From positions 20,062 to 84,061 of the forward strand of contig CALWTK010000001.1 in NCBI GenBank assembly GCA_944384465.1: a stretch of DNA of 64,000 bases, written 5' to 3'. This DNA comes from an uncultured Clostridia bacterium. GTDB lineage: Bacteria; Bacillota; Clostridia; Christensenellales; UBA1242. The translations under genes were made by a program, and so were the position numbers. Within the stretch, counting starts at the first letter, position 1. Each line of letters begins with the position of its first letter. The notes beneath the pieces were generated by a model, which saw nothing but the letters and a program-made list of their open reading frames with translations, did not search any database and was not told where the DNA came from. Positions 3,123 to 20,051 of this stretch are shown piece by piece.

Positions 3123-3538
3123 ATGTTTAAATGGATAAAAGTATTATTCAGACCTAGGACTCAATATTTGGCTTTAATGGCAAAAGATCAAGAAGAAAAA
3201 GATAAAAGTAAAAATTAGGTATCCAATCATTGATTTTATCAATAATAGGTGCTGTCATCATGATCGCAATGGTTGCAATAGCGACAGTCTTGGCACAAAA
3301 TATCAATGAATCATTGGCTGGCAATTATTCATTCCCTGTCATGTCGCTATTCGGTGCTATTGTGTTTTATGTATTTGCATTCATAGGGTTAATGTTGTTG
3401 TTAAATTCCATTTCGTTTGCAAATTTTCAGCGAAAAATAAACAAGCATATATTTGGCAAGGTCGCTTTGATTGTTAGTCTTGTATTACTTTTAATCTCAA
3501 TAGTTACAACGGTCGTATTGATTGTTGTTATGTTGTAA
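3123..3538 (+). pseudogene. Small 3-TM membrane protein, frameshifted in an A5 tract (or assembly indel)
   Basis: RBS-led ORF from 3123 stops at 3216-3218. Adding one A at 3210-3214 joins it to the 3230..3538 hydrophobic ORF (DKSKKLGIQSLILSIIGAV). Confidence 0.6.
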
Positions 3539-3648: not shown

Positions 3649-3720
3649 GAAATGTTAGATTCCTTTACTATACATATATATTCTATGGTTTTCTTAAAAA
3701 ATAGAAAGCAAAATTGCTTT

Positions 3721-6123
3721 CTATTTTTTCTTTGTTATATTAGTTTTCTTTTCTAACTCTTTGGTGGTCTCTTGAATCTTAGCACTCTCTTTTGCTATCT
3801 CATCGTCAATTTCTTTTAAGTACGCATCTATATCAGTTATTTTTGGCTCTTGTACTTCCAAAGCGTTCTCTACTTTACGTGGTCTGCCACGTCTCTTTGG
3901 CTGAGTAGTATCTTGATTTGTCTCTTCAACCACCTTTTTAGGACGTCCACGTTTCTTTTCTGTCACAGGTCCACTTGTTTGAGTAGTTTCTACAGCTGCT
4001 GTTTGAGTATTCTTCTTTGGTCTGCCGCGTCTCTTTGGTTGAGTAGCTTCTACATAGTCCTCTTTTATAGTCTCTTCTGCTACCTTTTTAGGTCGACCAC
4101 GTTTCTTTTTTGTCGTGTCTTGCGCCACAGTTGATTCTTCATTTTTGGTAGCGTCAACGTCATTTTTTCTAGGTCTGCCCCTTCTCTTTGGCGTCTGTGC
4201 ATCAGACTCTTGCTGTATTGGCTGTGAATCGACACTTGCATCCGCAGTCGTTGCTTTCTTCGGTCTACCACGTGAGCGCTTAGGTTTAGCTATTTCTTCC
4301 TTTGCTTCTTCTTTTTTAGGTCGTCCTACTTTGCGTTTTGGTTTTTCCTCTGTGGCAGTTTTCTTTGGTCGACCCGCCCTTTTAACTGTTTTGCTTTCAT
4401 CTTCTTTGACAGTGAAGATATCTTGAGAATGCACAATGTTTTCTATGCCCCCGTCAACATTGGCTCCATCATCAACTTCTTGAGTAATCTCAGTGTCTGT
4501 CGCATCTATTGCCTCAGGTTGTATCGCATTTTCATCGTGTACAGGCTCTTCTTGTGTGTCTACATTTTGTTGTTCTGACTGAATATTGTATTGCTCATCT
4601 TGATTCGTATATTGCTCTTCATTCGCCTGCTCTTGTTCGCCCGGCTCTGCCTGTGGTGCGGTATATTCAGGTTGTACATTAGTATGTTGATCTGCATATT
4701 GTTGTTCTTGATAATTTCCAGCATTTATAGTTTGATTAGCTTGATCCAACTTTTCAACTAACTGTTGATTTTGGTTATAAATATTGTCAAGTTCTTGATC
4801 TTTAGCAACAAGTTTTTCTTCCAATTGTTTGATTTGATTTTTGAGTTCGTCCATCTTTTCTTGTTCACGTTGCTCTACCAAAGACAATGCTTGATCATAG
4901 ACTTTGTTGCTATATGAGCTAAACTCACTCATCATGCCGCGCTCTAGAGTCTGACGCGCTTGTTTAATAGCATTTTCCACACTTGTAAGTTCAGTTTGAT
5001 AATTCTCAAGCAATTTTTTATGTCTATCTGTCGCTGTATCATAATCCTTTTCGAGATTACGTTGACGATCCAATTCTTGCTGTTGTTGTTTTTTCAAATA
5101 GTTTGCTTCAATTGTGGATGTCACTTCTTCTAGCTGTGATTTGAAATTGTCAAACGATTCTTTACTTACCTGCATTTGACGTTGATATTCTTTCGTGATC
5201 TCACGGAAATTCATCTCTTCCTGAGTGATATCAGCATTGATTTGTTCAATGTCCTGCATGTATTTTTTACGTTCGGCAATATAGTTTTCCGCTTCCTGCA
5301 TGGCGCGCTCTAATACGAGTGAACTTTCGACCCCTGCCTCGTCAAAGTTGAATTTTTCATGTTCAACGTTTTTAAGTCGTGCTCTTTCCAATTCTTTTTG
5401 TTCTTCTTCCGCCCTTTTCTGTAAATAAGCATACAGAATTGGAATACCCTTTTTAATCTCATTTTTATCAAACAACACTTCATAATCTACGTATTCTGGC
5501 AATGTCTGAGTAGCTTTGTCTATATTCACTTCAAAATACTGGTAATTTTGATATAGATCGCTGACGATTGCATTATGACGTAAATCTAAAAATATCGTCA
5601 GAATAAAATTCAACACTAATATCAAGACTGGACACAACAAAGTACGTTGTAATATAAGTGCCAATTCTGTTGTCTCATACGATATATACAAGTTAAATAT
5701 AAACGCTACCAGTGCCAATATGTACGAAATAATATTCATCACTGTCATGTCACGTTTGTATGAACTGTTTTTAATCGGGGTAGATACGCATATATCAAAA
5801 GACATATAATGGCTAGCTTTGTCTTCTCTATATAAAACAAATTGTTGCCATTGTTTTCTCAACTGTTTAGGAACTTTACGTGATTTCATTTTGTTGTTGA
5901 AAGCGACCAGATTGTCCTCTGTGATCTGTGGATTATCTATAAAATAATTATTGAACATATCTATCGCTTTGATCAATTTTGCTTCATAAGCATTAGATGT
6001 AGAAATAATAACAATAAGAATTGTCAGAATAAATAATGATAAGAAAATAATGAAAACTTCATTGTATTGTATATAATTACTCAGCGAACTAAAAAACCTA
6101 TCCACTTCATTAAATATATTCAT
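3721..6123 (-). CDS. Membrane-anchored coiled-coil protein with eight C-terminal AT-hook-like (GRP) motifs
   Basis: Three hydrophobic segments in first ~185 aa, long E/Q/K coiled coil, acidic linker, repeated (K/R)xxGRP(K/R)K. AAGGGG RBS before ATG 6123. Confidence 0.8.
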   Translation of the reverse strand: MNIFNEVDRFFSSLSNYIQYNEVFIIFLSLFILTILIVIISTSNAYEAKLIKAIDMFNNYFIDNPQITEDNLVAFNNKMKSRKVPKQLRKQWQQFVLYREDKASHYMSFDICVSTPIKNSSYKRDMTVMNIISYILALVAFIFNLYISYETTELALILQRTLLCPVLILVLNFILTIFLDLRHNAIVSDLYQNYQYFEVNIDKATQTLPEYVDYEVLFDKNEIKKGIPILYAYLQKRAEEEQKELERARLKNVEHEKFNFDEAGVESSLVLERAMQEAENYIAERKKYMQDIEQINADITQEEMNFREITKEYQRQMQVSKESFDNFKSQLEEVTSTIEANYLKKQQQQELDRQRNLEKDYDTATDRHKKLLENYQTELTSVENAIKQARQTLERGMMSEFSSYSNKVYDQALSLVEQREQEKMDELKNQIKQLEEKLVAKDQELDNIYNQNQQLVEKLDQANQTINAGNYQEQQYADQHTNVQPEYTAPQAEPGEQEQANEEQYTNQDEQYNIQSEQQNVDTQEEPVHDENAIQPEAIDATDTEITQEVDDGANVDGGIENIVHSQDIFTVKEDESKTVKRAGRPKKTATEEKPKRKVGRPKKEEAKEEIAKPKRSRGRPKKATTADASVDSQPIQQESDAQTPKRRGRPRKNDVDATKNEESTVAQDTTKKKRGRPKKVAEETIKEDYVEATQPKRRGRPKKNTQTAAVETTQTSGPVTEKKRGRPKKVVEETNQDTTQPKRRGRPRKVENALEVQEPKITDIDAYLKEIDDEIAKESAKIQETTKELEKKTNITKKK

Positions 6124-6675
6124 ACGCACCCCTTAACGACATTTTTTTACATTATTATTATAACACAAAGATTTATTAATTACTAATAAATTAAAAATAT
6201 TTTTTAAAATTTTTTAAGATTTTTTATGAACGAATTCACCCATATACAGCAAATTAAGTTTTGTGATTAATAGAAAATTAAATAAAATTGCATAAATGAA
6301 TAAAGAGCCAACCATCTTTTATGATAATAAATAAAAAACACTGAAATTATGGTAAATTTACTAATAATTTTATTATAAAAATAGAAGGATATAACTCTTT
6401 ATTTTTTTGTAAATTTACTATAAGTTTATACTTATAAAATACACTAAAATAAAACTCCTTAATTAAATAAATAATGAGTACATCAATATAATATTACCGA
6501 TATATAATCTATAGCGATATATAACATATAGCAATTAAAGATTATAAATGTAAATAGAATATTTAAACAATTAAATAAATTGTTTTAATTGTCTTTGAAT
6601 GTTAAAGTTAAAAAAATGATAAAAATTCAAAATTTATAAAAAAATTTGCACCTGCGTATCCCTGACATAAAATAA

Positions 6676-6704
6676 TTGACTTCCCCATAAGCTTATAGTA
6701 TAAT
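6676..6704 (+). promoter_or_regulatory. sigma-A promoter of Zn-peptidase gene
   Basis: TTGACT-17 nt-TATAAT. Confidence 0.75.
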
Positions 6705-6727
6705 CAATTCAAAATAATGGAGAAAAA

Positions 6728-9092: not shown

Positions 9093-12000
9093 TTAATTGT
9101 CAAGGGATGCGAAATTGAAAATATATGTATAAGTTATATTTTGAGCATCATTATCCAAGCTCACTCCTTCAAATACAATTTTTATGTTTGATTCACCATT
9201 AGATATATTGGCAATAGATATGTTAGACAAACTTGAAATGTTGATCTGATCTTCTATATCGCTTTGCTCTTCTGGATAGTATGTAGTATATACATTGTCC
9301 ATTTCTGTATCATCAACCGTTGTCAAATATATATTTACTCCTTGACTCAAATCAAACATGTCAAGTAAGAATGCAAAGTCAAAGTTCATTAATATTTCGC
9401 TAGCATTCTCATTATAATTATCTATCAATACGTCATATGTAAATACTCTATCTACGTCATTATTATTCGACAAATAAATATAAGTTGTCAAATTATTCGA
9501 GCCATTATTTGTAAAGGTCACACCAGCATATTCTTGATTGGTGAACACTAATAAATTGTTGCTATAACTCTGACGTCCCCACGCATCAAACGAAGTGAGA
9601 ACTGCTCCTACAGTATACATTACGTGAGTATAATCACTTGCTAGTGCGTCACTTTTTATAATGTTAGCGAATGGTAAATCGCACGAAACGTCGGTCGTTA
9701 AATTTGCATCCTTTATGACTCCGACCCCTGTGATATCAAATTCGCCATTAATCACAATCAGATTGTTGTTCGAATCAAGCCCCACTCTGTTGACAAGTCC
9801 ATTTTCATCCGAAGCGCCAATAGCTAACCCCAATACACGAATATAACCAATAGATGAACTAAAATCATTTCTGTTAGCGAGATAGTAGTAGAAATTCGAT
9901 AGATTTGTAAACAAATTATTCAGCGTGTCCACTGTTATACTAGTATCTTTCAGTTCAGCATTTAATGAAATATTGTTATCTAAAATATACTCTATAGTAT
10001 TAGGTATTGCGACCTGACTGCTATTTGTAACAGCGCCCGAACCACTTCCTCTATTTTTTAATGTTTCATTGCTATAATTTGATCCAACTATTCCTCCAGT
10101 ATAATAACCTAATAGATTGCCATCAAAAGTAGAATTATATACCGAACCTTCCACATTCCTACCAACAAGTCCTCCCACTGTAGGATTAGCTGTAGAAGAA
10201 GATAATGATTTGATGATATTTATCTCTGCGTTGCTGTTTTGAACGAATCCGCCCAAATTCAAACCGACCAAACCAGCTGATACATTGTTAGATCCATCAA
10301 ACAAAGTGTCAACACTTGCAATGATTGAAGAATTCGTCACAACGCCCCTGTTCTCACCTACTATACCGCCTGAATATTGACTGCCTGACAGCGCTCCACT
10401 ATTTAGATTTACCCTGACATTGTCCGCCATCACTCTTTCTCCTACAAAGCCGAAAGCTGCTCCGATTGTATCCCCCAGGACAGTGATATTACCATTTACC
10501 TCCACATCAGAAATGGTAAAATATGTAGATGTAGATAGATTCCTACTAGCATTCATGTCATATCTAGCATTGTTGTATCCATCTAATATCCCAAACACAC
10601 TGCCCGCATAATAAACGGAAATTAAATTCTCTGATGCTATCACTCCATTATTTGTAGACGTGTATATAGAATAACTATAACTGCTAGAAGCGCGCGTACT
10701 GTTTGCTCCGACATTGCTCGTAATCTGTTCTATGTCAAACTCCCCACGGACAAGCCCAGCAACACCGCCCACTGCATTACCGCCAACTACTATCACTCCA
10801 GATGCGTCTAAATCAATGTTGTACAGATTGAATCCCTCTACAATTCCTGCAAGACTACCGACTGCTTGTGTTTTAGTTGCCAAGACTGAAGAGACACTTA
10901 TATCTAAATTCCTTACAGCGTTGGTAATAGATATATCATCTGCTGAGATCATCTCTTTGAATAGACCTATAGCGTCAAGACTAGAAGAAGAGTAAATCAT
11001 TAGCCCTGTCAAATCCATGTTGTTGCCCTGTATGTTACCCATGAACGACAATGTACTTGTGTTTGGATTTCCATACATTGATGAAAAGTCTATATCCGCA
11101 ACCAGTCTGAAATAATCTTCTGGATTGTTCATAAAATAATTATTCCAACTAGTCAAATCATAAATGACATAAGGATTGTCTTTGGTCCCGTAATTTCCGT
11201 TAATAATCTCATAACTATAATTATAGGTAATATGTCCATCTTCATCTACGACTTCTTCACGGTGCACCACTATGTTTCGCAGTCCATAATACATATCCTC
11301 GCTAGGCTCGCTCGTGCCAGTGTATTCAACTATCTCCAAGGTGGATACCAATTTTGGCAGAGCGCCAAGGGTCATAGTCCATACCGCGCTCTCGTTATCT
11401 CCGAATGTAAATCCTCGATAAGTGTCCTTAAGATACATATTAGATATGCTGACTGTAGTCAAATTCTCGATTCTATTATTATATCCGCTAGGGATTAACA
11501 TAATTTCATAAGAAGAAGTGATCCCTGTAGTATTGGCAGGCGCGAACATATTTACTGTCGTTAACCTCATGACCCCTTGATTGATATATGTATAGCAATT
11601 ATTTATGCTTCCCTGATTTGTCTGAACAAAACCAGAGAAGGTATTGTTGTTGGCACCTAACATTAGCATGTCTACATAACAGTCATATATTGAATTAGTA
11701 TTGTTGTATACGAACCCTGCAGATATATCTTTGGCAGATATGTTACCTATAGTTATAGCGGTCAAAGCTGTAGTCTCCACATCTACAAAACTCATAGATA
11801 TTTCGCCCGAATTGTTGACAACAAAGCCACCGATTTCAATCAAACTAGTCGTGACTATATTGTTGTTGTAGCCATAGATCAAGCCGGTAAATGAACTTGA
11901 CGCAATCTTGCCCGCATTTGAATACACTAGTCCACCTATGTTCGCCTGTGCGTACATCTCAATGCTGCTACTAGAATTAGTAATAAATGCTGACGAATTG

Positions 12001-15000
12001 TTTTGACACACCAAACCGCCCATATAGAAGTCTATCGCATAGCCAGAGATTCTATCTTCAACTGTGGACGCATGAATTGCTATTTGTCCGCTTGTAGAGC
12101 AGTTCGTAATAATACCATTGTTGACTGGAGTAATCCCACCGAAATATACTGCTGAATAGTTCACATCCGGATTTGTGCATAGATCCGCATAATCTATGAT
12201 AAAAGATGTCGTACCAGTCCGCACGTTCCCGAACGAATATTCGCCTATTCCTTCATTGACGGAAGAATATTTAACTTCCAAATTCATGATTACCATACCT
12301 TCACTGACCTGTCTAAACAGCCCAGCATATATAGTTTCTTCATCGAATTCAGCAAAACTTTCAATGGTGATAGTGTGCCCATTGCCATCAAAGACTTTGA
12401 ACACTATATCTAGCGGGGTATAATCTCTGAGCACTAAGTCTCTACCTAGAATATAATAAGTATTCTCACCCGCCGCCATATTCAAGAAATCTTCTTCATC
12501 CTTTATGAGTTCTGCTTCTTCGAACGTGTTTGAATTTACAAAATTAAGAATATAAGAGTAACTATATACAAGGTAAGGGGCGTCACTACTCTCATTTGAA
12601 ATATTGTTGGTGACATGCTCATCCGGACTCTCTATAGTCCAAGTGTAACTATCGGTAAGCACCAAATTAAAGTCAACATGCAAGAAGGTGTCCCTGTTCC
12701 CAGTATTTACTCTTAACACGTTTCCTGTGAGCGAAATCGTCTCGTTATCAATACCTTGACTATTATACAGATATAGATATCCATCCACATTTTCGTTCAA
12801 GGCACGCAAAATTGCATTTATCCTACCTAAGGTGGTAGACGTGTCTGTATTCGAACTATCAAATCTATACTCTCTATCCCAGAAGCCCTGATTGTACACA
12901 CTGATATCAGTATCTCTAAAGTAAAATTCAAGTGTAACATCTGTAGAATAGTCTCCATAGATTTCATCCGCACCTGACGCATTCACCCTACTATGTGTCA
13001 CGCTGACATCGTGGACAATAAACTCCACTATCTCAAATGTGATGACTATTTCCGCCCTCTCATAATCGCCATTTTCTAGCGTCGCCGTGGTAGCCAAGCC
13101 CAGAGTGAGCGTGCCGCCCAACAAAGCTTCATTGAATCTAACTGCATACAATGTATAGAAGCCGTTCACATCTTCCACTAAAGCAAAATAGTCGTTGACA
13201 TTTATACTCGAGTCCACTCCGGAAATTGAGAATTCTGTTATCTCGACATTCCCATCCGAATTGCTTGTCTGAATTCGCAAATTCGTGTCCACACCATTGG
13301 CAATATAATATGCATTCACGCTAGAAGTACTATCGAATGTCAAGCCCACTTCACCATTTGGTTTCAAAATATCCACATTGATAGATGGTAACATCTTAAC
13401 ATCAATATTGTAATAGAATGTACTACCCACCTGTGTGCCGTCATCAAGATATGCAGACACCCTAATCCTATGTATCCTAGATGAATAGGTACTGCTGATC
13501 ATAGTTGATACATAGAACCTGCCTTCTTCAGTATTATCATATTTCAACAATTGAATTCCTGTTCCATCACTTGAAGGATTGTCCATATTGGACATTCTAG
13601 CGCCAGCAACGCCATCAATTTGAGCGAATATGATCTCTTCACTGCCCGTGACATCGCTAATTTCTAGATAATCAAAATACCCATTGATAGGTGCAATATC
13701 TATGATTATCAGTCCTTGCCCAATAGGACGCAATACATCACTTCTAGATATCAATCCCATATCATAATCGTCATAGATATAGTTCTTTATCTCTATAGAG
13801 TTGATACGTTGTGGAAGAAGTGTGAATTCTGCACTGGCATTTATCCCGTTAGCCAACTGGAAATAAACTGTCATCGTACTTTTATCGTCAATGTTCGCTT
13901 TGTCCGCAAAAATCACTCTATAATAAACAGTTTGAATCCCGTTCTCATAATCGTCATATTCAATCAATTCAATATAATCGGTTAGGTTATCCACCTGTGT
14001 GCCATCAATTCCAATCATGCCAACCAAAGCAGACAATTCTTCTTCGCCCAATTTTAAGTCAGTCTTGATGTAGGCAGTGATTGTGGTCGTATCATTAGGG
14101 TACAGTATGACTGAGTCATAGTTGATAGATATGTCACTTGCTCCCCTGCTGGTCACAATGGCGAAATTTATTGTCACCTCTTCATAATAGACTATCACTT
14201 CCGACCCGTTATAATTCACTACTGTATAAGGTCGCACTTCCACTGAAAAACTCGAGCCTTCTAGATGTTGCAATACAGATATGCTGAATGATGTCTCAGG
14301 ATTGAGCCTTACTGTCATACTATTATTTTCAGTTTCATTAGTCATGCCACTGACGTTCAAATATTCGCCTATGTTGATATTTGTTTCGCTAGCAATCGAA
14401 ACTATCACTTCTAGATAAGTATCATCTGTCCTATAACTATAATCTATGCCCTGATAAGAGACACTGCCTGTGTTTATTATATAGAACTGTTTGCCAGAGT
14501 CTTTGACTATATTTTGTGTTGTCCCATTAATATTACCTGAAATGTCTGACGCACTATCACTTATGACAAAATCCTCTCCATATGCACGTGAAACATCGAT
14601 TGTGATTGACGCTCTAATTGCTTGATTTAAAATGGATATGAAAGTCAATTCGCACTGCCCAACGCCGTTCACTATTATTCTGTCTCCAGACACACCAATT
14701 ACAGAGCTATTAGAAGATTGCATATAAATTCTGATAGACTCCAAACTCTCAGGCTGATAAGTAAATGATACCAATTCTTTGATAGAATATGTGTTGTAAC
14801 GTTCTATCAATTCATTTAAAATTGCGACATAATTTTCATCCGTTGTGTCGAGCACAAAATCATAATAATTCAAATGCAAAACAGTATTGAAACTTTCATC
14901 TATAGGGTCAAGTACAACTGCATCAATTTCGGTCGGAGCTAATTCAAACAAGGTATTGCCATTCTCATCTTTTAGATAGATATATCCGCCATTAATATCG

Positions 15001-18000
15001 CTACTATATCCCCAGATTTGAGATTCGCCCGCTGAATTTAATGTCATTTCATGAGCATCGCTAAAACTACCGATATTTAGCTCTGTCCCATTATCGATGA
15101 CAACCGAGTATACATAGTTATATAATGAATTTCCTAAATTGTCCAATGCGAGATTTTGAGTAGATACTGCATCGCTAGAATAATTCACGTCACCATCCAT
15201 CCTGCCCATAAAATAAGCGTATAAAATGAGTGCACTGTTTTCTTCAGTTGAGACAAGTCCCGCCATGTTGGCTCTTTGTACTCCATTGTCCGCCTGAATA
15301 TATGCATTCACACTGCAATTTAGGATAGACAATGCTGAATATGACCCACCATCTTGCACATTAGAGACGTTAGTCACTCCTGCACCAATCAGACCAGAGA
15401 CAAAATTCTCTCCCGCTATATCAGGCGTACCATTCATGACTTGAGAATAATCACTGATGCTATAATCTTCATTCAGTTGACTATAATCCCACTTGTAGCT
15501 CATCACAGAGCAATATGTAAAGTATCCATAGATTGAATATCCCGCAATACCGCCTACATATTGATTTCCTGCCACACCATGCTCCATACTGGTCAGTATT
15601 TGATAATGACAATCTCTATATATACCGCCATCATCATATCCTACAATACCGCCTACATAATTTTGACCACTGACAACTACTGCTGACGTGATGCCTGTAT
15701 GATAATATACTCCTAAATTATTGCTGATTCCTATCAGTTGCCCCACATTAATAGTTAGTGTTACATCCGTATTAGGCGTCTGATTTTTACCAATTGCGCC
15801 ACCGACATTGTTGTGAGACGCTTGAATTGTCCCTATTACATAACCATTTTGTATTCGTCCAGAATAGTTCTCCCCGTCTATAGTAGTCTCTGCGTTGAAA
15901 CCTACCACTCCACCCACGCTAGAATCTGCACTTGTCAAATGGGAGACAATATCAACTACTGAAATTGCGCCTTCGTTCGCAACATATACACCAAATTCAA
16001 TATTGTCATTGGTGAGCAACGAATGATCAGCGTTTGTTGATACACCCGCACCTGTTCTTTCAATCAGACCATAATTCTTTCCAACCAGTCCACCAAAATT
16101 CACGACCGCATCGCCGTTTAATGTGATAGACCCACTTGCCCCAATTACACTACTGGAAGTGTATAGAATATCTGCATAATTTATCCCAACAAGGCTACCG
16201 AAGTTATACTCTGGCAATGCCGTGCCATTATATAGATTCGCGCTACCTGAATAATTGATGTTGATATTTTCTAGCATGCCGTAATTTATATCAATCAGAC
16301 CAAGATTCGCTGATGCGGTAATATTTGTCGTATTGCTATTTTCTGGTTCATTGAATGAATAATTGTATGAAACATTGAAATTGATATTAGACAATGTCCC
16401 ACTAAAATTAGTGAACAGATTTGGATTACTGCCGTCCAACGTTATTCCATACAAAGTATAAATATATTCACTATTAGAACTAGAATATGTAGAGATTTGC
16501 CCACTGAAATTGTCAATCACGCGCGGACCAGTGTACGAAGTATTCATGAGATCCACATTAGTCATCAATCTATAGTACGATGCTTTCATTTGTTCAGTGC
16601 TGTTGATGTCCCAAAAATCATTAGCGTCATTAATTATGAAAGGATTTTCTTCTGTCCCGTCAGACAAATAGAGATTTATGACCACATACGCATCCAAATA
16701 TGCGTCTTGCAATTCACCCGTTTCATTCAGGATAAAGCTCGAGATATTGTCAAAACCAACGGTTGATGCATCTATAATTTGATTTAAAACATCCTTCGCA
16801 AACACTATCAATCTCAAGTTTGAAGCATTGGAAATTGTCTCACGTACTGTCAAGGTATGATTGTCATTGTCAATGATTATGCTGTTGTTGTTTTGATTGC
16901 CATAATTGTTGACAACGACCATGAAAATATCCGGTTTGGTGACCGTGCCTAAAGGTGAATAATTCTCCGCCGTCAACGTATACGTCTCACCCGCTTTTAA
17001 ATCCAAATAATACTCTTGATTCAAATCATCAGTTATGTTTACATCGCTTGTGATTGTGACGCTCTGCGTGATGATAGGTCGTTGAACAGTCACAAGGCAA
17101 CGCAAAGTATATATCGTATTGAATTGTACAATCTCTGCATAGATATCTTCTCTATAACTATCAGTTGATTGATTGTTGCCTGTGAATGTCAGACTAATGC
17201 TGTTATCCGTCTGCTCATCCGTCCTAATCCTTTCGCCATTTTCGGTATACCATACCACTCTATAATCTTCATTTTGGACACCTATGTTGAACGACTCAGC
17301 TTGCGTGCTCATTTGGGTATAATTCCATAAATTTTCATCACTTATGCTAATCTGCAAAGTTGCCTTTGAGTCGTCTTTATTGTACGCTCCGAGACTGGAC
17401 TCCACATATCTAACTAGACTTGTATTATTGATTGTCAAATCATCTTGACCAATTTCTTCATAAATGAAGAACGATAGGACGACAGTGACATCTTCATATC
17501 CGTTAGGTGTGATTATGTCCGAATAGTTTTGTACCCGCACAGTGAAGCTGACATTGATATAATTGTTGGTATCATTAAAATATGTCCCGTCCAAGAATGT
17601 CAATAGCACTCTGTTCCCTTGTGGCTCCAACCTGATATAATCACTGGATGACGCACTGACAATTCCATCAAAGATTGAACTATAATTATATTCTACTATA
17701 TAATTATTATTAAATACATTATCTACTAATAGTTGTACATCTATGGTTTGATTTGAAGCGACAATGTAATCTGCTTCATAGCCTGGGAATTTGTAACTCG
17801 TCTCAATATTTCCATCATTATTTGTTTGGACAATATTGTTGATTACTCTATCATTTTCTGGTATTACACATTCTATATCGTCAGTGCTTAACTGCTGATA
17901 TACATACGCTATTATTTCTTTTGTATATCCATTGGAATGTCTAAAGGTTATTCTATATTCCCCCACGTCCGTTTCACTATTGAATAGCAGTAAGATGGCA

Positions 18001-20051
18001 TTATTTACCGCTCCTGTAGAAGAGAATTGATATTCAATATTTGAACTACCTTGAACCAGATTTCCGCTTGTGTTGTACTTCCCGTTCGCGTCACTGGAAG
18101 CGTATTGTTTTACTGTCAGTGGATTATCCTGCCCGCCAGTCACTGTCACGCTAAAACTTGCTGACGTCACAGTTTTATCCATATATCCCACGATGTTATT
18201 TTGAGCTATGTATAACAAATATGTATGACTATCGGCGTTGTCCTGCCCTTGCAATCTGTTTAAATAAACAGTATCAACAGCATAGCCTACCCCATTGTTG
18301 TCCACATATATGTCTTCCCTATATGACGTGGAACCCTGTACTTGCATCAAATAACCCGCATTGACATCCATGCTGCTCACGCCGTCCTGCCTATTGAAAT
18401 TCAAGGAAACAGTAGTCCCAGATATATCTTCTAGATAAAGTATATCCCCTGTATAGAAAGTTGATATGTCAGCATTCAGTGGACGATCATCTATATAATT
18501 CGTCTCTACATAGCGGATATAAATATTGTTTAGACTAGTGATAGGTTCAGACACAAATTTTAGTAAAGTTGTATCAAAATAAAATCTCAAAGGTTGACTA
18601 TCTAAATAAAATTCCAATACATATCTACTATTTCTGTAGAAATACTCTACATTTCCTAACACATAAGAATTGTCCGTGACAAGTGTAGTGAAAGTATTGT
18701 CAGAATATATTCTATTCACCCCTTCATACTGACCATTGACAAGGATATATGCGTTCAACACTTCGGTTGATACTTCTAGTCTCATGCTTTTCATGTCGTT
18801 TAGACTATATTCAACGACAGGATTAAAATTGAACAACGCACCCAAAGCACTGCCACTGGTCACATAATAGTCGTACAGGTCTAGGCTCTCATCCGTATCT
18901 ATCACTTCACCTTGCATGCTCACTTCAATATTGTTGGGTTTGACCTCGCACTTAATACGAACAATGAATTCGATTGTGTATATATCTCCCACACAATTTT
19001 TTGGCACCAATTTTATCTTTGCTTCAACCGGATTTTCAGAGTAAGCATTGGCTTGTATAATATATTTGTCATTTGACTGCCCAACAAAAAGATACGTCTC
19101 GTCAACATCTATGTCGACATTATAATATTGTAGATAGTCATCTATGGCCAACAATTCTTCATCCTGACGGTATCCTATGGTGAATTGAAAATTGTTGTAA
19201 TTATACATTTGACCATCTGACGCTGTATTCTCAGTATAATCATTCGCTATTAGATAGATGATATCATCATTGTTTATATATTGTTGATGATATGAGTCCG
19301 TCTCTATCTCAAATTCTTCCAGCACATTTATGAATTCAAAGGTGACAACGGCGTTTGGATACTCTGTATTCTCATAGCCACCCATAACAGTAACAGGATA
19401 TAGTGAGAGTGTAGAACCTTCAGCGACACCGCTCCCAACGACAAAACCAGTTATTAATTCTTCGCCATCTATTGTCTCTGTGATATATTCTACATTGTTG
19501 ATTGTCTGCCCTGTTGATTTAAAATAGACTTGATCCGTGCTCCCAGCAGGTGAAAGAGCTACTATCTCGTTGGATTTAATGTAGACATTTTGAGATTCTT
19601 CAGATGGGACATCCACAATGTAGGCGTCCCCAGAAGTTTTAAGTGAAGAAGATTTTCTACCAATATTGAGATTGATCCCCGCGGTCCTACCAGTAGTCAT
19701 GTGAGTGACCACAATTTGTCCATTCCCACTCATGTTCGCATCTACTGTGAAATAATATGTATCATCCTGCAATTCCAAATTTGAAATTGTAGCTAACTCG
19801 TTAGGTGAGGATTGAATAGAGATGTTACCTATGTTGCTTTCACTAATGCCCTCAAATTTGACACCCAACCTTTGAGTAGCATTTGCTTGTTCTACAGAAG
19901 AATCAATCACTAAATTCACTTCACTGATCTGCTCACCAGACACAGAATAAAATGACATATTTAAATTTGAATAATCATCACGGCAAGCAGAAAAAACCAC
20001 GCATGAAAACAGCGTAAATATGATCAATGCTAACGTATAAAATTTCTTCAT
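9093..20051 (-). CDS. Giant 3652-aa acidic surface lipoprotein with GLUG-type repeat modules
   Basis: Lipoprotein signal MKK...FSAC. Three modules (GTEENPFII..YYRL, FDGNGHTI, GTKDNPYVI..YFRL) each followed by (N/Y)VGG(I/L)VG GLUG motifs. Beta-rich spacers. AGGGGAG RBS. Confidence 0.8.
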   Translation of the reverse strand: MKKFYTLALIIFTLFSCVVFSACRDDYSNLNMSFYSVSGEQISEVNLVIDSSVEQANATQRLGVKFEGISESNIGNISIQSSPNELATISNLELQDDTYYFTVDANMSGNGQIVVTHMTTGRTAGINLNIGRKSSSLKTSGDAYIVDVPSEESQNVYIKSNEIVALSPAGSTDQVYFKSTGQTINNVEYITETIDGEELITGFVVGSGVAEGSTLSLYPVTVMGGYENTEYPNAVVTFEFINVLEEFEIETDSYHQQYINNDDIIYLIANDYTENTASDGQMYNYNNFQFTIGYRQDEELLAIDDYLQYYNVDIDVDETYLFVGQSNDKYIIQANAYSENPVEAKIKLVPKNCVGDIYTIEFIVRIKCEVKPNNIEVSMQGEVIDTDESLDLYDYYVTSGSALGALFNFNPVVEYSLNDMKSMRLEVSTEVLNAYILVNGQYEGVNRIYSDNTFTTLVTDNSYVLGNVEYFYRNSRYVLEFYLDSQPLRFYFDTTLLKFVSEPITSLNNIYIRYVETNYIDDRPLNADISTFYTGDILYLEDISGTTVSLNFNRQDGVSSMDVNAGYLMQVQGSTSYREDIYVDNNGVGYAVDTVYLNRLQGQDNADSHTYLLYIAQNNIVGYMDKTVTSASFSVTVTGGQDNPLTVKQYASSDANGKYNTSGNLVQGSSNIEYQFSSTGAVNNAILLLFNSETDVGEYRITFRHSNGYTKEIIAYVYQQLSTDDIECVIPENDRVINNIVQTNNDGNIETSYKFPGYEADYIVASNQTIDVQLLVDNVFNNNYIVEYNYSSIFDGIVSASSSDYIRLEPQGNRVLLTFLDGTYFNDTNNYINVSFTVRVQNYSDIITPNGYEDVTVVLSFFIYEEIGQDDLTINNTSLVRYVESSLGAYNKDDSKATLQISISDENLWNYTQMSTQAESFNIGVQNEDYRVVWYTENGERIRTDEQTDNSISLTFTGNNQSTDSYREDIYAEIVQFNTIYTLRCLVTVQRPIITQSVTITSDVNITDDLNQEYYLDLKAGETYTLTAENYSPLGTVTKPDIFMVVVNNYGNQNNNSIIIDNDNHTLTVRETISNASNLRLIVFAKDVLNQIIDASTVGFDNISSFILNETGELQDAYLDAYVVINLYLSDGTEENPFIINDANDFWDINSTEQMKASYYRLMTNVDLMNTSYTGPRVIDNFSGQISTYSSSNSEYIYTLYGITLDGSNPNLFTNFSGTLSNINFNVSYNYSFNEPENSNTTNITASANLGLIDINYGMLENININYSGSANLYNGTALPEYNFGSLVGINYADILYTSSSVIGASGSITLNGDAVVNFGGLVGKNYGLIERTGAGVSTNADHSLLTNDNIEFGVYVANEGAISVVDIVSHLTSADSSVGGVVGFNAETTIDGENYSGRIQNGYVIGTIQASHNNVGGAIGKNQTPNTDVTLTINVGQLIGISNNLGVYYHTGITSAVVVSGQNYVGGIVGYDDGGIYRDCHYQILTSMEHGVAGNQYVGGIAGYSIYGYFTYCSVMSYKWDYSQLNEDYSISDYSQVMNGTPDIAGENFVSGLIGAGVTNVSNVQDGGSYSALSILNCSVNAYIQADNGVQRANMAGLVSTEENSALILYAYFMGRMDGDVNYSSDAVSTQNLALDNLGNSLYNYVYSVVIDNGTELNIGSFSDAHEMTLNSAGESQIWGYSSDINGGYIYLKDENGNTLFELAPTEIDAVVLDPIDESFNTVLHLNYYDFVLDTTDENYVAILNELIERYNTYSIKELVSFTYQPESLESIRIYMQSSNSSVIGVSGDRIIVNGVGQCELTFISILNQAIRASITIDVSRAYGEDFVISDSASDISGNINGTTQNIVKDSGKQFYIINTGSVSYQGIDYSYRTDDTYLEVIVSIASETNINIGEYLNVSGMTNETENNSMTVRLNPETSFSISVLQHLEGSSFSVEVRPYTVVNYNGSEVIVYYEEVTINFAIVTSRGASDISINYDSVILYPNDTTTITAYIKTDLKLGEEELSALVGMIGIDGTQVDNLTDYIELIEYDDYENGIQTVYYRVIFADKANIDDKSTMTVYFQLANGINASAEFTLLPQRINSIEIKNYIYDDYDMGLISRSDVLRPIGQGLIIIDIAPINGYFDYLEISDVTGSEEIIFAQIDGVAGARMSNMDNPSSDGTGIQLLKYDNTEEGRFYVSTMISSTYSSRIHRIRVSAYLDDGTQVGSTFYYNIDVKMLPSINVDILKPNGEVGLTFDSTSSVNAYYIANGVDTNLRIQTSNSDGNVEITEFSISGVDSSINVNDYFALVEDVNGFYTLYAVRFNEALLGGTLTLGLATTATLENGDYERAEIVITFEIVEFIVHDVSVTHSRVNASGADEIYGDYSTDVTLEFYFRDTDISVYNQGFWDREYRFDSSNTDTSTTLGRINAILRALNENVDGYLYLYNSQGIDNETISLTGNVLRVNTGNRDTFLHVDFNLVLTDSYTWTIESPDEHVTNNISNESSDAPYLVYSYSYILNFVNSNTFEEAELIKDEEDFLNMAAGENTYYILGRDLVLRDYTPLDIVFKVFDGNGHTITIESFAEFDEETIYAGLFRQVSEGMVIMNLEVKYSSVNEGIGEYSFGNVRTGTTSFIIDYADLCTNPDVNYSAVYFGGITPVNNGIITNCSTSGQIAIHASTVEDRISGYAIDFYMGGLVCQNNSSAFITNSSSSIEMYAQANIGGLVYSNAGKIASSSFTGLIYGYNNNIVTTSLIEIGGFVVNNSGEISMSFVDVETTALTAITIGNISAKDISAGFVYNNTNSIYDCYVDMLMLGANNNTFSGFVQTNQGSINNCYTYINQGVMRLTTVNMFAPANTTGITSSYEIMLIPSGYNNRIENLTTVSISNMYLKDTYRGFTFGDNESAVWTMTLGALPKLVSTLEIVEYTGTSEPSEDMYYGLRNIVVHREEVVDEDGHITYNYSYEIINGNYGTKDNPYVIYDLTSWNNYFMNNPEDYFRLVADIDFSSMYGNPNTSTLSFMGNIQGNNMDLTGLMIYSSSSLDAIGLFKEMISADDISITNAVRNLDISVSSVLATKTQAVGSLAGIVEGFNLYNIDLDASGVIVVGGNAVGGVAGLVRGEFDIEQITSNVGANSTRASSSYSYSIYTSTNNGVIASENLISVYYAGSVFGILDGYNNARYDMNASRNLSTSTYFTISDVEVNGNITVLGDTIGAAFGFVGERVMADNVRVNLNSGALSGSQYSGGIVGENRGVVTNSSIIASVDTLFDGSNNVSAGLVGLNLGGFVQNSNAEINIIKSLSSSTANPTVGGLVGRNVEGSVYNSTFDGNLLGYYTGGIVGSNYSNETLKNRGSGSGAVTNSSQVAIPNTIEYILDNNISLNAELKDTSITVDTLNNLFTNLSNFYYYLANRNDFSSSIGYIRVLGLAIGASDENGLVNRVGLDSNNNLIVINGEFDITGVGVIKDANLTTDVSCDLPFANIIKSDALASDYTHVMYTVGAVLTSFDAWGRQSYSNNLLVFTNQEYAGVTFTNNGSNNLTTYIYLSNNNDVDRVFTYDVLIDNYNENASEILMNFDFAFLLDMFDLSQGVNIYLTTVDDTEMDNVYTTYYPEEQSDIEDQINISSLSNISIANISNGESNIKIVFEGVSLDNDAQNITYTYIFNFASLDN

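Follow-up and report, generated by a model that had tools for sequence, protein, structure and literature searches.

What does a bacterial membrane protein do with eight AT-hooks? We address this question for a gene in a 64,000-nucleotide stretch of DNA (hereafter, the window) from an uncultured Clostridia bacterium. The gene lies at 3721..6123 on the minus strand and encodes three transmembrane (TM) helices followed by a coiled coil, an acidic linker and an AT-hook array. A sequence-only reading had proposed that the product is a nucleoid tether for segregation or sporulation, or else a membrane sensor for incoming AT-rich DNA. In public records the proteins of this family are entered as 'hypothetical protein' with AT_hook as their sole Pfam mark, and a full-text literature search found no description of the family. 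To our knowledge, direct protein links between chromosome and membrane are few and mostly peripheral (Noc, RacA-DivIVA). Our results favor a model in which the protein forms a ring anchored in the inner membrane, with a cytoplasmic stalk and an AT-hook tail that tether A/T-rich DNA there, a reading to which we give an even chance of being correct.

Gene structure and genomic context

The ORF listing contains a single open frame at 3721..6129 on the minus strand, the strand on which all features of the gene given below lie. Its likely start is the ATG at 6121-6123, from which translation gives 800 codons and a stop codon at 3721-3723. We favor this start because a ribosome-binding site (AAGGGG, 6129..6134) lies 5 nt upstream and because an ATG occurs at the equivalent position in 26 of 27 related frames. 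The resulting span, 3721..6123, is the one that the sequence-only reading had given. The 27th frame (L023) reaches the end of its contig and differs at the N-terminus. The gene is single-copy and monocistronic with its own ribosome-binding site, and it sits in a conserved housekeeping synteny; its neighbors encode MetRS, a 102-aa ORF with three TM segments and no family, a Zn peptidase, alanine racemase and QueH.

Architecture and topology of the membrane module

Residues are numbered from the ATG, and TM boundaries were taken from AlphaFold models. A Kyte-Doolittle scan gave three hydrophobic segments, which the models locate at approximately residues 22-43, 127-150 and 154-182. TM1 is a peripheral helix (residues ~22-43; 5995..6060), identified by hydropathy, by the model helices and by K/R at positions 41/43 throughout the family. 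It is followed by a conserved helical loop domain of 83 residues (44-126; 5746..5994) that is modeled with a pLDDT of 83-92, is included in the ZorA, TolQ and ExbB alignments and contains five residues (E47, N71, P85, W92 and R99) that are invariant in 45 diverse members. The next two helices are TM2 (127-150; 5674..5745) and TM3 (154-182; 5578..5664). In column counts over 109 family members, TM2 bears a small/polar face (T/S133, A137, S/T140, G/S144), and Pro165 of TM3 is kept in 104 of the 109; the TM helices are otherwise poorly conserved. Among the polar positions of these two helices, 65 of the 109 members have T/S at 133, 65 have S/T at 140 and 32 have S at 161. The segment after TM3, which forms the base of the stalk (183-255; 5359..5577), is highly conserved in the alignments, with P209, D213, F218, E222, I223 and L230 invariant or nearly so. 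This anatomy agrees with the TM - soluble domain - TM - TM layout noted earlier, in which the stretch running from LRKQWQQF to KASHYM is the TM1-TM2 loop; the coiled coil, acidic linker and AT-hooks also follow as described, the long helix comprising ~195 residues.

Clusters of K/R are found downstream of TM1, upstream of TM2 and downstream of TM3, whereas the short loop that joins TM2 to TM3 has no K/R. This pattern obeys the positive-inside rule and also fits the ZorA-like model described below, and it suggests an N-out, C-in orientation: an extracellular N-terminus and a cytoplasmic loop domain are predicted, and the tail is probably cytoplasmic as well. No signal peptide was found. Family databases give little to place the module. 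The protein has no Pfam family for this region, with AT_hook and a sub-threshold DUF1514 as its only matches; NCBIfam likewise has no family for it and returns coiled-coil noise (for example, PspA with E 0.0016, a model whose cut-off is 850 bits), and the ESM Atlas returned only unnamed clusters, with a recognition value under the useful range.

Structural likeness to stator A subunits

When the model of the N-domain (pLDDT 79.7, pTM 0.65) was compared with the PDB by Foldseek, ZorA took ranks 1-5 (best E 4.8e-3, probability 1.00, TMq 0.46), and the further rows among the matches listed were mostly TolQ, ExbB and PomA/MotA; no PDB match reached E <= 0.001. A VIA-align comparison with 48,161 chains also placed ZorA at ranks 1-3 (Z 12.1, 219 residues aligned, rmsd 11.4), with ZorA 8vvn_C at Z 10.2 (188 aligned, rmsd 4.8), TolQ at Z 9.4 (193 aligned, rmsd 5.6) and ExbB at Z 9.7, the last two each covering at least 190 residues, on a scale where Z values below ~13 are common among helical bundles and can arise by chance. 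Among the matches listed, unrelated chains aligned over at most 148 residues, except for the designed three-helix bundle 4tql_B (188 aligned, rmsd 12.8). The models thus suggest, at moderate strength, that the membrane module has the stator A-subunit fold of TM1, a cytoplasmic helical domain and a TM2-TM3 hairpin, and that the loop domain would correspond to the membrane-proximal cytoplasmic domain of ZorA. The sequence-only reading had remarked on a loose likeness to MotA, ExbB and ZorA and had suggested a Foldseek search of the N-domain. That likeness has become the strongest structural lead, with ZorA at the top in both comparisons, but it does not extend to family membership by sequence.

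The module is also predicted to self-associate. Four copies of residues 1-250 (four, not five), modeled with an alignment of our own, gave an ipSAE of 0.75, compared with 0.00 for the best of three controls; among solved structures, 20 of 30 homo-pairs and 1 of 23 single chains attain this mark, and the predictor may owe the score to 5:2 motors of known structure that it has memorized. At least 69% of contacts are shared between runs, the partner pLDDT is at least 75, and TM2 (127-157) packs against the neighbor's TM3 (153-199), a ring-type interface. The model is consistent with side-by-side self-association of a ring type, in which the number of copies may follow that of the known complexes.

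Sequence comparisons gave no sign of this relationship. PF01618 matched neither the protein (E <= 0.1) nor the genome (E <= 10), and the NCBIfam ZorA model did not hit the protein, a distant homolog (L027) reaching only E 0.19. Alignment of our profile with three Bacillota ZorA N-domains by hhalign gave a probability of 0.6%, and a search of PDB sequences with the profile found nothing relevant, with two irrelevant rows at E 1.9. PADLOC had no match to the membrane module; it did report ZorA matches in family members, but we consider these compositional because they are confined to the coiled-coil tail, beside matches to LmuB and JetC. By the PF01618, hhalign, PDB profile and PADLOC results, the protein is not a member of the stator family at the level of sequence.

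As described in PMC11946911, ZorA consists of a peripheral TM1, a cytoplasmic domain, TM2 and TM3, and a long cytoplasmic helical tail that is required for defense, and it carries polar 'filter' residues (T147/S184) in its pore-lining helices. Compared with the ZorA of ZorA5B2 (PDB 8qyd, 8vvn), our protein is predicted to have the same three TMs, a helical cytoplasmic domain likewise inserted between the first and second of them, and a long cytoplasmic helical tail that begins right after TM3; in the four-copy model, it would also share the packing of TM2 and TM3 between adjacent copies. In contrast, the two have no detectable sequence relation, and this genome yielded no ZorB-type partner. 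The helical stalk of ZorA is ~500 residues long as described there, compared with ~195 here, and ZorA works with the separate DNA-binding/nuclease proteins ZorC and ZorD, whereas here the tail itself ends in a disordered AT-hook array. The present gene is also not patchy in distribution but lineage-wide, and it resembles a housekeeping gene. The models point to a shared membrane-module fold and topology with ExbB, TolQ, MotA and PomA as well, but these proteins have no long tail and carry the PF01618 signature that is absent here.

Search for a B-subunit partner

The A subunits ExbB, TolQ and MotA always act with ExbD, TolR or MotB. Such B subunits, ZorB included, have an Asp buried in the membrane, and their genes usually adjoin those of the A subunits. 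The sequence-only reading had seen no MotB-like partner next to the gene, and the ORF list and family search of the locus confirm this. In the genome as a whole, which is 97.7% complete, searches with PF02472, PF13677 and PF00691 came back empty at E <= 10, and a phmmer search with ZorB gave no true match, its single match being a soluble protein aligned outside the TM region. A ZorB-like motif scan returned no ORF, and a rough screen for ORFs whose N-terminal TM carries an acidic residue listed 41, none of them convincing. One of the 41 resembles a sugar transferase in our reading. With these queries, then, a B subunit was not found in the genome, although a divergent partner may exist.

Stalk, linker and AT-hook tail

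Beyond the stalk base, the full-length model contains a long helical stalk (residues 266-462; 4738..5328) made of helices 266-333 and 337-462, with pLDDT mostly 80-95; as a straight helix it would measure ~29 nm by our own estimate, and an alignment of 23 species has many invariant positions up to approximately residue 410. Residues 463-764 are disordered in the same model. They begin with an acidic, Q/E-rich linker (463-578; 4390..4737; pLDDT ~30, no secondary structure), for which the charge count is 31 D+E vs 7 K+R over residues 470-595 in the hydropathy scan's own numbering.

The linker leads into an array of eight AT-hooks (3874..4383), identified by motif scan, by Pfam PF02178 and by conservation in orthologs. 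From the N-terminal side, hooks 1-4 lie at 4360-4383, 4312-4335, 4255-4278 and 4165-4188, and hooks 5-8 at 4084-4107, 4012-4035, 3934-3957 and 3874-3897. The eight motifs spelled out in the sequence-only reading (KRAGRPKK, KRKVGRPKK, KRSRGRPKK, KRRGRPRK, KKRGRPKK, KRRGRPKK, KKRGRPKK and KRRGRPRK) are exact. An RGRP core is present in six of them, and K/R-flanked R-G-R-P is the canonical minor-groove motif (Pfam PF02178). The protein belongs to the AT_hook family by its Pfam score (E 1.3e-11, 43.4 bits vs a cut-off of 17.4); all eight AT_hook matches in the 1.07-Mb genome fall within this gene, and the motif scan found hooks in this ORF alone among 4,987. Across the 23 species there is little or no change in the G-R-P cores, whereas the spacers vary. 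The motifs suggest that the eight hooks would bind the minor groove of A/T-rich DNA. Eukaryotic HMGA and Myxococcus CarD similarly have several R-G-R-P cores with K/R on either side, set in disordered, basic sequence, but those proteins are soluble, act in the nucleus or cytoplasm and have 3-4 hooks, whereas here eight hooks stand at the end of a membrane-anchored stalk.

The earlier suggestion that the array arose partly by tandem duplication is modestly supported: a two-hook module at 3871-3964 matches 4009-4114 with ~80% DNA identity, although Tandem Repeats Finder reported no repeat inside the gene. The protein closes with a conserved C-terminal helix (residues 765-799; 3727..3831; pLDDT 74-90) that ends in KKK. 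Residues L769, I772, I776, E779 and L790 of this helix are nearly invariant in the 23-species alignment, and a KK terminus is found in 53 of 115 family representatives.

Distribution and variation in the family

The gene is present in all 24 same-genus genomes and in 12 of 13 sampled genomes of the same taxonomic family. Of 25 genus-level frames, counting the one in the window, 24 have between 3 and 11 hooks, as does every complete copy. The remaining frame is a 512-aa product cut by a contig end. The sequence-only reading had called for a survey of related genomes and had named absence of the GRP repeats from orthologs as evidence that would speak against it; this objection fails because the repeats are conserved.

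The wider family comprises 336 clusters at E <= 1e-3, and the peptide pattern Px[YF][VI]D[YF]E[VIL]LF retrieves 273 relatives. Two or more hooks occur in 51 of 116 listed proteins of at least 600 aa, and a GRP[KR] core is lacking in 61 of 115 representatives, so that about half of the family is hook-less. A basic tail nevertheless recurs in part of the family even without hooks, since 20 of the 61 coreless representatives have a 100-aa window with a net charge of at least +15 and K/A/P-rich repeats. The other 41 have no strongly basic window, and some of their tails are acidic with Y/G/D repeats. Tails are thus not always basic, and DNA binding therefore cannot be the function of the whole family. 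In a quick N-domain tree, 44 of 45 hook-bearing representatives fall within one subtree of 52 rows; confinement to one subtree indicates long retention of the hooks, as far as a quick tree can tell.

The host genome has ~33% G+C, a size of 1.07 Mb and 97.7% completeness, and the carriers are uncultured gut Christensenellales with genomes of 0.8-2 Mb.

A proposed DNA-to-membrane tether and its alternatives

We consider a tether between DNA and membrane the best reading because the architecture holds, the K/R pattern favors a cytoplasmic tail and the hooks are conserved, with DNA binding predicted from the motifs. In such a model, the membrane module (residues 1-255), which resembles the 'A' subunit of 5:2 ion-driven motors in shape and topology, would assemble into a ring with TM2 packed on TM3 of the next copy. 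One helix of ~195 residues per copy would project into the cytoplasm as a stalk, and the ~300 disordered residues beyond it would provide an acidic spacer and eight hooks that bind the minor groove of A/T-rich DNA, while the end helix might bind a partner or bundle the tails. A ring built like ZorA would have five tails and 40 hooks, and with several tails per ring the assembly would be a multivalent tether of chromosomal DNA at the membrane. We propose a housekeeping function in this lineage. The part of the sequence-only reading that concerned a nucleoid tether is thus the one we favor, but neither a link to sporulation nor a role in segregation is supported. ParB, SMC, FtsK and HU are all present in the genome, which rules out a replacement for lost copies of these proteins.

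Noc and RacA-DivIVA offer the nearest functional parallels, in that chromosomal DNA is brought to the membrane via a DNA-binding protein with membrane affinity. Noc of Bacillus subtilis is ParB-like and soluble, with an amphipathic helix and specific binding sites, and RacA acts in sporulation, when it binds DivIVA at the cell pole. An integral membrane ring bearing a stalk has no counterpart in either system, and neither is known to be related in sequence to the protein described here. If our reading is true, the nucleoid would be organized in a new manner, by tens of AT-hooks on an integral anchor that forms a ring, and the ZorA/ExbB fold would occur for the first time apart from a two-gene A-B unit and fused to its own DNA-binding output; this would also bear on Zorya-type tail signaling and on the diversification of the 5:2 architecture.

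Two alternatives dispense with intracellular DNA. The protein could be a membrane scaffold, a membrane-anchored coiled-coil protein like EzrA, with a role in division or envelope organization, its tail binding RNA, polyphosphate, anionic lipid or teichoic-acid precursors, or serving as a spacer. The hook-less half of the family with its acidic or Y/G/D-rich tails is in keeping with this, as is the moderate fold match, and conservation is highest in the loop domain, at the base of the stalk and in the C-terminal helix rather than in the tail. We nonetheless think it unlikely, given that hook cores stay invariant within the genus while the spacers drift, that all but one of the hook-bearing representatives share a subtree in the quick tree and that the motif is a canonical minor-groove binder. 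Inverted topology, with the stalk and hooks outside the cell and bound to extracellular DNA or host polyanions, seems to us very unlikely. The first 22 residues carry few charges and hydropathy alone is not decisive, but K/R around all three TMs, the ZorA/TolQ/ExbB-like model and the lack of a signal peptide favor N-out, tail-in, and a highly charged tail of 600 residues after TM3 would presumably have no known route of export.

The structural matches also raise two active roles for the protein. It could be a housekeeping offshoot of the 5:2 rotary-motor fold with hooks on the rotor's cytoplasmic stalk, which, together with a B-type partner or a neighboring lipoprotein, would act as an ion-driven machine to hold and move chromosomal or incoming DNA at the membrane, its rotating stalk and tail reeling or organizing DNA or handing it to AddAB. 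The ZorA, TolQ and ExbB matches with their common layout, the ring-type modeled interface, the semi-conserved small/polar face of TM2 and the TM3 positions S/A161, P165 and G/N172 are all consistent with such a motor. The stator principle would then have found a new use in addition to those in flagellar rotation, Ton/Tol transport, gliding and Zorya defense. In addition, 11 of 80 related loci have addB-addA ahead of the gene on the same strand; in 4 of the 80, next after the gene come a lipoprotein that has a C-terminal TM, a 2-TM peptide and dnaB, and a related lipoprotein lies upstream on the opposite strand in L105 and L115. However, the genome has no ExbD, MotB_plug or OmpA family match and no ZorB-like ORF, neither the soluble phmmer match nor the 41 ORFs of the TM-acidic scan supply a candidate, and the TM of the lipoprotein has no acidic residue. 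The genome's own lipoprotein gene is ~100 kb away, and addBA is on a separate contig (C16). The TM helices are weakly conserved as well, whereas stator A subunits proper are generally best conserved there. A motor is decidedly unlikely in our view. A universal operon partnership with addAB is ruled out, the gene not being beside addAB in the genus. The other active role, a Zorya-like immune sensor in the envelope whose DNA-binding tail catches injected A/T-rich DNA, possibly for degradation by AddAB, would take up the earlier idea of a sensor for incoming AT-rich DNA, and we regard it as a long shot. The closeness of ZorA in structure, the need for the ZorA tail in defense, the rapid variation in hook number within one genus, the addAB adjacency and a replacement form of the tail in two RNA-library runs (see below) would suit it. 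Against it, the gene is single-copy and lineage-wide in housekeeping synteny, beside MetRS, Zn peptidase, alanine racemase and QueH, which argues against a defense island; no ZorB was found, and PADLOC did not match the membrane module. Defense genes are usually patchy. A Zorya system would bring ZorA, ZorB and effectors together at one locus, whereas this locus holds housekeeping genes only.

Flanking signals and RNA-library matches

A possible extended -10 promoter element, TGTTATAAT, was read off the sequence at 6157..6165 on the minus strand, ~34 nt upstream of the ATG. A promoter consensus scan gave a neighboring register. At the other end, a hairpin with T-runs on either side (3696..3729, assigned to neither strand) overlaps the stop codon and might act as a two-way terminator common to the gene and a convergent small ORF; as a terminator it is weak, because the scan found 2 terminator-like sites vs 1.4 expected, no more than chance. 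RNA-library contigs from four runs of one study match the gene at >=95% identity, one of them, of 2,019 nt, spanning 4106-6124. These matches are compatible with expression, although contigs cannot prove transcription. All four runs are without contigs over 6171-6623, an interval that is not usable for transcript ends. Contigs from two of the runs have 4109-4309 replaced by 34 other letters.

Architecture of the AT-hook membrane protein

The target gene, which encodes the AT-hook membrane protein, is a single open frame on the minus strand (window 3721-6129), with a ribosome-binding site (AAGGGG) 5 nt upstream of an ATG at 6121-6123. An ATG lies at the matching position in 26 of 27 related frames, the exception (L023) being interrupted by a contig end. 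This start, backed by both the ribosome-binding site and the related frames, gives a protein of 800 residues, and the extent of 3721-6123 assigned in the sequence-only reading is therefore right. Approximately 34 nt 5′ of the ATG, a TGTTATAAT element can be read from the sequence. At the other end, a terminator scan placed a hairpin over the stop codon (3696-3729), a type of structure that is no more frequent here than in shuffled sequence.

Three hydrophobic helices (residues 22-43, 127-150 and 154-182, counted from the ATG) and a well-predicted helical domain between the first two (residues 44-126) belong to the membrane module. The third helix leads into a very conserved segment (residues 183-255) and two long helices (residues 266-333 and 337-462; pLDDT mostly 80-95), followed by a region predicted to be disordered (residues 463-764) and an end helix for which confidence is high again (residues 765-799). 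In its first part the disordered region is acidic, with 31 D+E versus 7 K+R over residues 470-595 in the numbering of the hydropathy scan, and in its second part it holds eight AT-hooks (DNA 3874-4383, minus strand). The Pfam AT_hook model scores the target at 43.4 bits (cut-off 17.4), and all eight of its matches in the 1.07-Mb genome fall within this frame; a motif scan of 4,987 ORFs found no hooks outside it.

The proposal that the hook array arose partly by tandem duplication has modest support: a two-hook module occurs twice at ~80% DNA identity, but Tandem Repeats Finder reported nothing inside the target. The GRP repeats, whose absence from orthologs had been named as a ground for abandoning the sequence-only reading, are in fact kept there. 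Counting the window's own frame, 24 of 25 genus-level frames carry 3-11 hooks each, the sole hook-less frame being truncated to 512 aa by the end of its contig, and a full-length alignment of 23 species has invariant or near-invariant GRP cores separated by variable spacers. In contigs of two RNA-library runs (X2 and X3), 34 other letters stand in place of window 4109-4309 of the array; this form fits strain-level variation and probably comes from a related strain with fewer hooks.

Predicted structural similarity of the membrane module to ZorA

Sequence searches of Pfam, NCBIfam and the PDB returned no match that explains the membrane module, and structure searches were made with an AlphaFold model of residues 1-275 (pLDDT 79.7, pTM 0.65). 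In Foldseek, ZorA occupied ranks 1-5 (best E 4.8e-3, prob 1.00, TMq 0.46) and most of the next rows were TolQ, ExbB or PomA/MotA; no row was at E ≤ 0.001. ZorA again took ranks 1-3 in an independent all-against-all aligner (Z 12.1, 219 residues aligned), with further rows for ZorA 8vvn (Z 10.2, 188 aligned, rmsd 4.8), ExbB (Z 9.7) and TolQ (Z 9.4, 193 aligned, rmsd 5.6). Unrelated helical bundles ranked in between with at most 148 residues aligned, except for the designed three-helix bundle 4tql_B (188 aligned, rmsd 12.8). Because this aligner warns that helical proteins can reach Z values below ~13 by chance, we regard the ZorA-like fold of the model as a good lead and not as proof. As set out in PMC11946911, TM1 of ZorA is peripheral, a cytoplasmic domain lies near the membrane, the partner is lined by TM2 and TM3, and the protein continues into a long coiled-coil tail in the cytoplasm; the target layout agrees with this description.

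When four copies of residues 1-250 were modeled as a complex, the ipSAE reached 0.75, whereas the best of three controls scored 0.00; 20 of 30 solved homo-pairs attain the 0.75 mark, as does 1 of 23 solved single chains. Contact agreement between the runs was at least 69%, with pLDDT of at least 75. In the predicted complex, TM2 packs on TM3 of the neighboring copy, as would be expected of a head-to-tail ring contact, in a model that used four copies and our own alignment and that may draw on solved 5:2 motors.

A proposed membrane anchor for DNA and competing models

Despite this shape, several tests argue against placing the target among the stator A subunits of ion-driven motors. The MotA_ExbB family (PF01618) matches neither the target nor any other protein of the genome, and hhalign of the family profile against the N-domains of three Bacillota ZorA proteins gave a probability of 0.6%. 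PADLOC did report ZorA matches for family members, but these are located in the coiled-coil tail beside LmuB and JetC matches and thus reflect composition. Conservation in the family is concentrated in the cytoplasmic loop and the stalk base; the transmembrane helices are variable, save for Pro165 (104 of 109 sequences) and a semi-conserved small/polar face of TM2. No B subunit emerged either: the genome, an estimated 97.7% complete, has no match to the ExbD, MotB_plug or OmpA families at E ≤ 10, ZorB queries gave one spurious match to a soluble protein, and a crude scan for an N-terminal transmembrane helix with an acidic residue yielded no convincing candidate. For these reasons we describe the target as shaped like MotA/ExbB/ZorA and do not file it as a member of that family. 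A true ion-driven motor whose partner escaped recognition seems to us unlikely. The target would thus join a stator-A fold, with no visible partner, to a putative DNA-binding tail, and a full-text literature search, judged on titles and abstracts, returned no description of such a protein.

We favor, with about even confidence, a model in which the target is a ring-forming anchor in the inner membrane whose stalk and AT-hook tail hold DNA at the membrane. A cytoplasmic stalk, ~29 nm long if straight by our estimate, would project from the membrane ring, and the flexible tail of ~300 residues would offer many AT-hooks to the A/T-rich chromosome. ParB, SMC, FtsK and HU are all present in the genome. 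The same architecture, with its likeness to ZorA, could serve a Zorya-like sensor of foreign DNA, which we consider improbable. The K/R distribution and the ZorA-like model both suggest that the tail is cytoplasmic; the opposite orientation, which would put stalk and hooks on the cell exterior, is very improbable. Unlikely as well, though the most probable of these alternatives, is a scaffold whose basic tail has a ligand other than DNA, a reading on which the variation of the tail also bears.

Among the 116 listed proteins of at least 600 aa, 51 carry at least two hooks, 3 a single hook and 62 no hook. With one protein (P0005) left out of the remaining counts, its C-terminus resembling another membrane protein, a 100-aa window of net charge ≥ +15 occurs in 63 of 115 representatives and a C-terminal KK in 53 of 115. 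The GRP[KR] core is missing from 61 of the 115, and 20 of these 61 still hold such a charged window, formed by K/A/P-rich repeats; other branches of the family thus often, although not always, carry a different basic tail. In a quick tree of 109 N-domains, from which seven rows had been removed as N-terminally cut or odd, one subtree of 52 rows holds 44 of the 45 hook-bearing rows, so the hooks appear to be an old feature retained in one branch of the family, with at least six state changes needed across the tree.

Distribution of the family

Searched with the whole protein, 27 of 41 related genomes gave a match, including 24 of 24 from the same genus; among genomes from other families of the order, 2 of 16 match it, weakly and in the N-domain only. 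Of 301 genomes sampled across the order, 41 have a family match, 12 of 13 from the window's family among them, and all matching genomes are 0.8-2.0 Mb in size. An N-domain profile recovered 336 clusters at E ≤ 1e-3 and 151 at E ≤ 1e-30 from 1.84 billion representatives, and a stalk-base peptide pattern yielded 273 confirmed relatives in 185,579 species (one genome each), from which we kept 80 loci, recorded under Candidatus Onthoplasma and uncultured Clostridia/Christensenellales gut MAGs. Source records call the family proteins hypothetical.

Two distant relatives (L026:3638-4504, 289 aa; L027:3150-4292, 381 aa) consist of the membrane module without a long stalk or AT-hooks, as do further short frames of 300-650 aa in other small-genome Christensenellales families. 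These short relatives carry the module alone, which is therefore older than the tail.

Genomic neighborhood and expression

The target gene stands alone, between a divergent Zn metallopeptidase gene (PF04298) upstream and, downstream, a convergent 102-aa ORF followed by MetRS. This ORF (window 3230-3538, plus strand) has three hydrophobic segments free of acidic residues and no Pfam or NCBIfam family, and it shares the stop-codon hairpin with the target. The 600-bp intergenic region on the peptidase side (6130-6727) is very low in G+C (0.19 in the 6001-6500 bin) and contains a 10-bp tandem repeat, ATTTTTTAAA, at 6199-6226; we speculate that the AT-hooks of the target itself would naturally bind there.

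Onthoplasma-type loci comprise, in this order, a 245-aa gene of unknown function, the divergent Zn peptidase, the target, convergent DUF1858 and Zn-ribbon genes, and MetRS. Among the 80 kept loci, the peptidase lies directly 5′ in 38 and the DUF1858 gene directly 3′ in 37. In 11 of 80 loci, from more distant members, addB-addA lies directly 5′ on the same strand with a gap of ~90-140 bp (for example, L109:79-5849); the target's own genome has addBA apart from it, on another contig (C16:9307-15597, minus strand). A DNA-repair neighborhood is therefore not a feature of the gene in this genus.

In 4 of 80 loci, the family gene is followed by genes for a lipoprotein with a C-terminal transmembrane helix, an 88-aa two-TM peptide, dnaB and a sigma factor. 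The lipoprotein is encoded downstream on the plus strand at L103:2414-3289, L107:4551-5432, L109:8359-9240 and in L113, and a related one upstream on the minus strand at L105:4174-5169 and L115:4394-5272. Its family (~290 aa, with a C-terminal TM helix and a conserved T(S/T)(S/K)R(L/R)H(S/T)xAD stretch) has no Pfam entry. It thus adjoins the family gene in two arrangements in distant lineages and is unlinked in the target's own genome, where it lies outside the window (C1:126930-127766, minus strand), with dnaB, ~100 kb from the target. The lipoprotein is a possible partner of the target family.

RNA-library contigs from four runs of one chicken-gut study map to the target at ≥95% identity, a single contig of 2,019 nt spanning 4106-6124; this would fit expression of the gene but is no proof of it. 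Elsewhere in the window, a 3,652-aa ORF (9093-20051, minus strand) takes up ~1% of the 1.07-Mb genome; it shows a signal of the lipoprotein type (…LFSCVVFSAC) and long N/S/T/G-rich repeats, and it probably encodes a giant surface protein.
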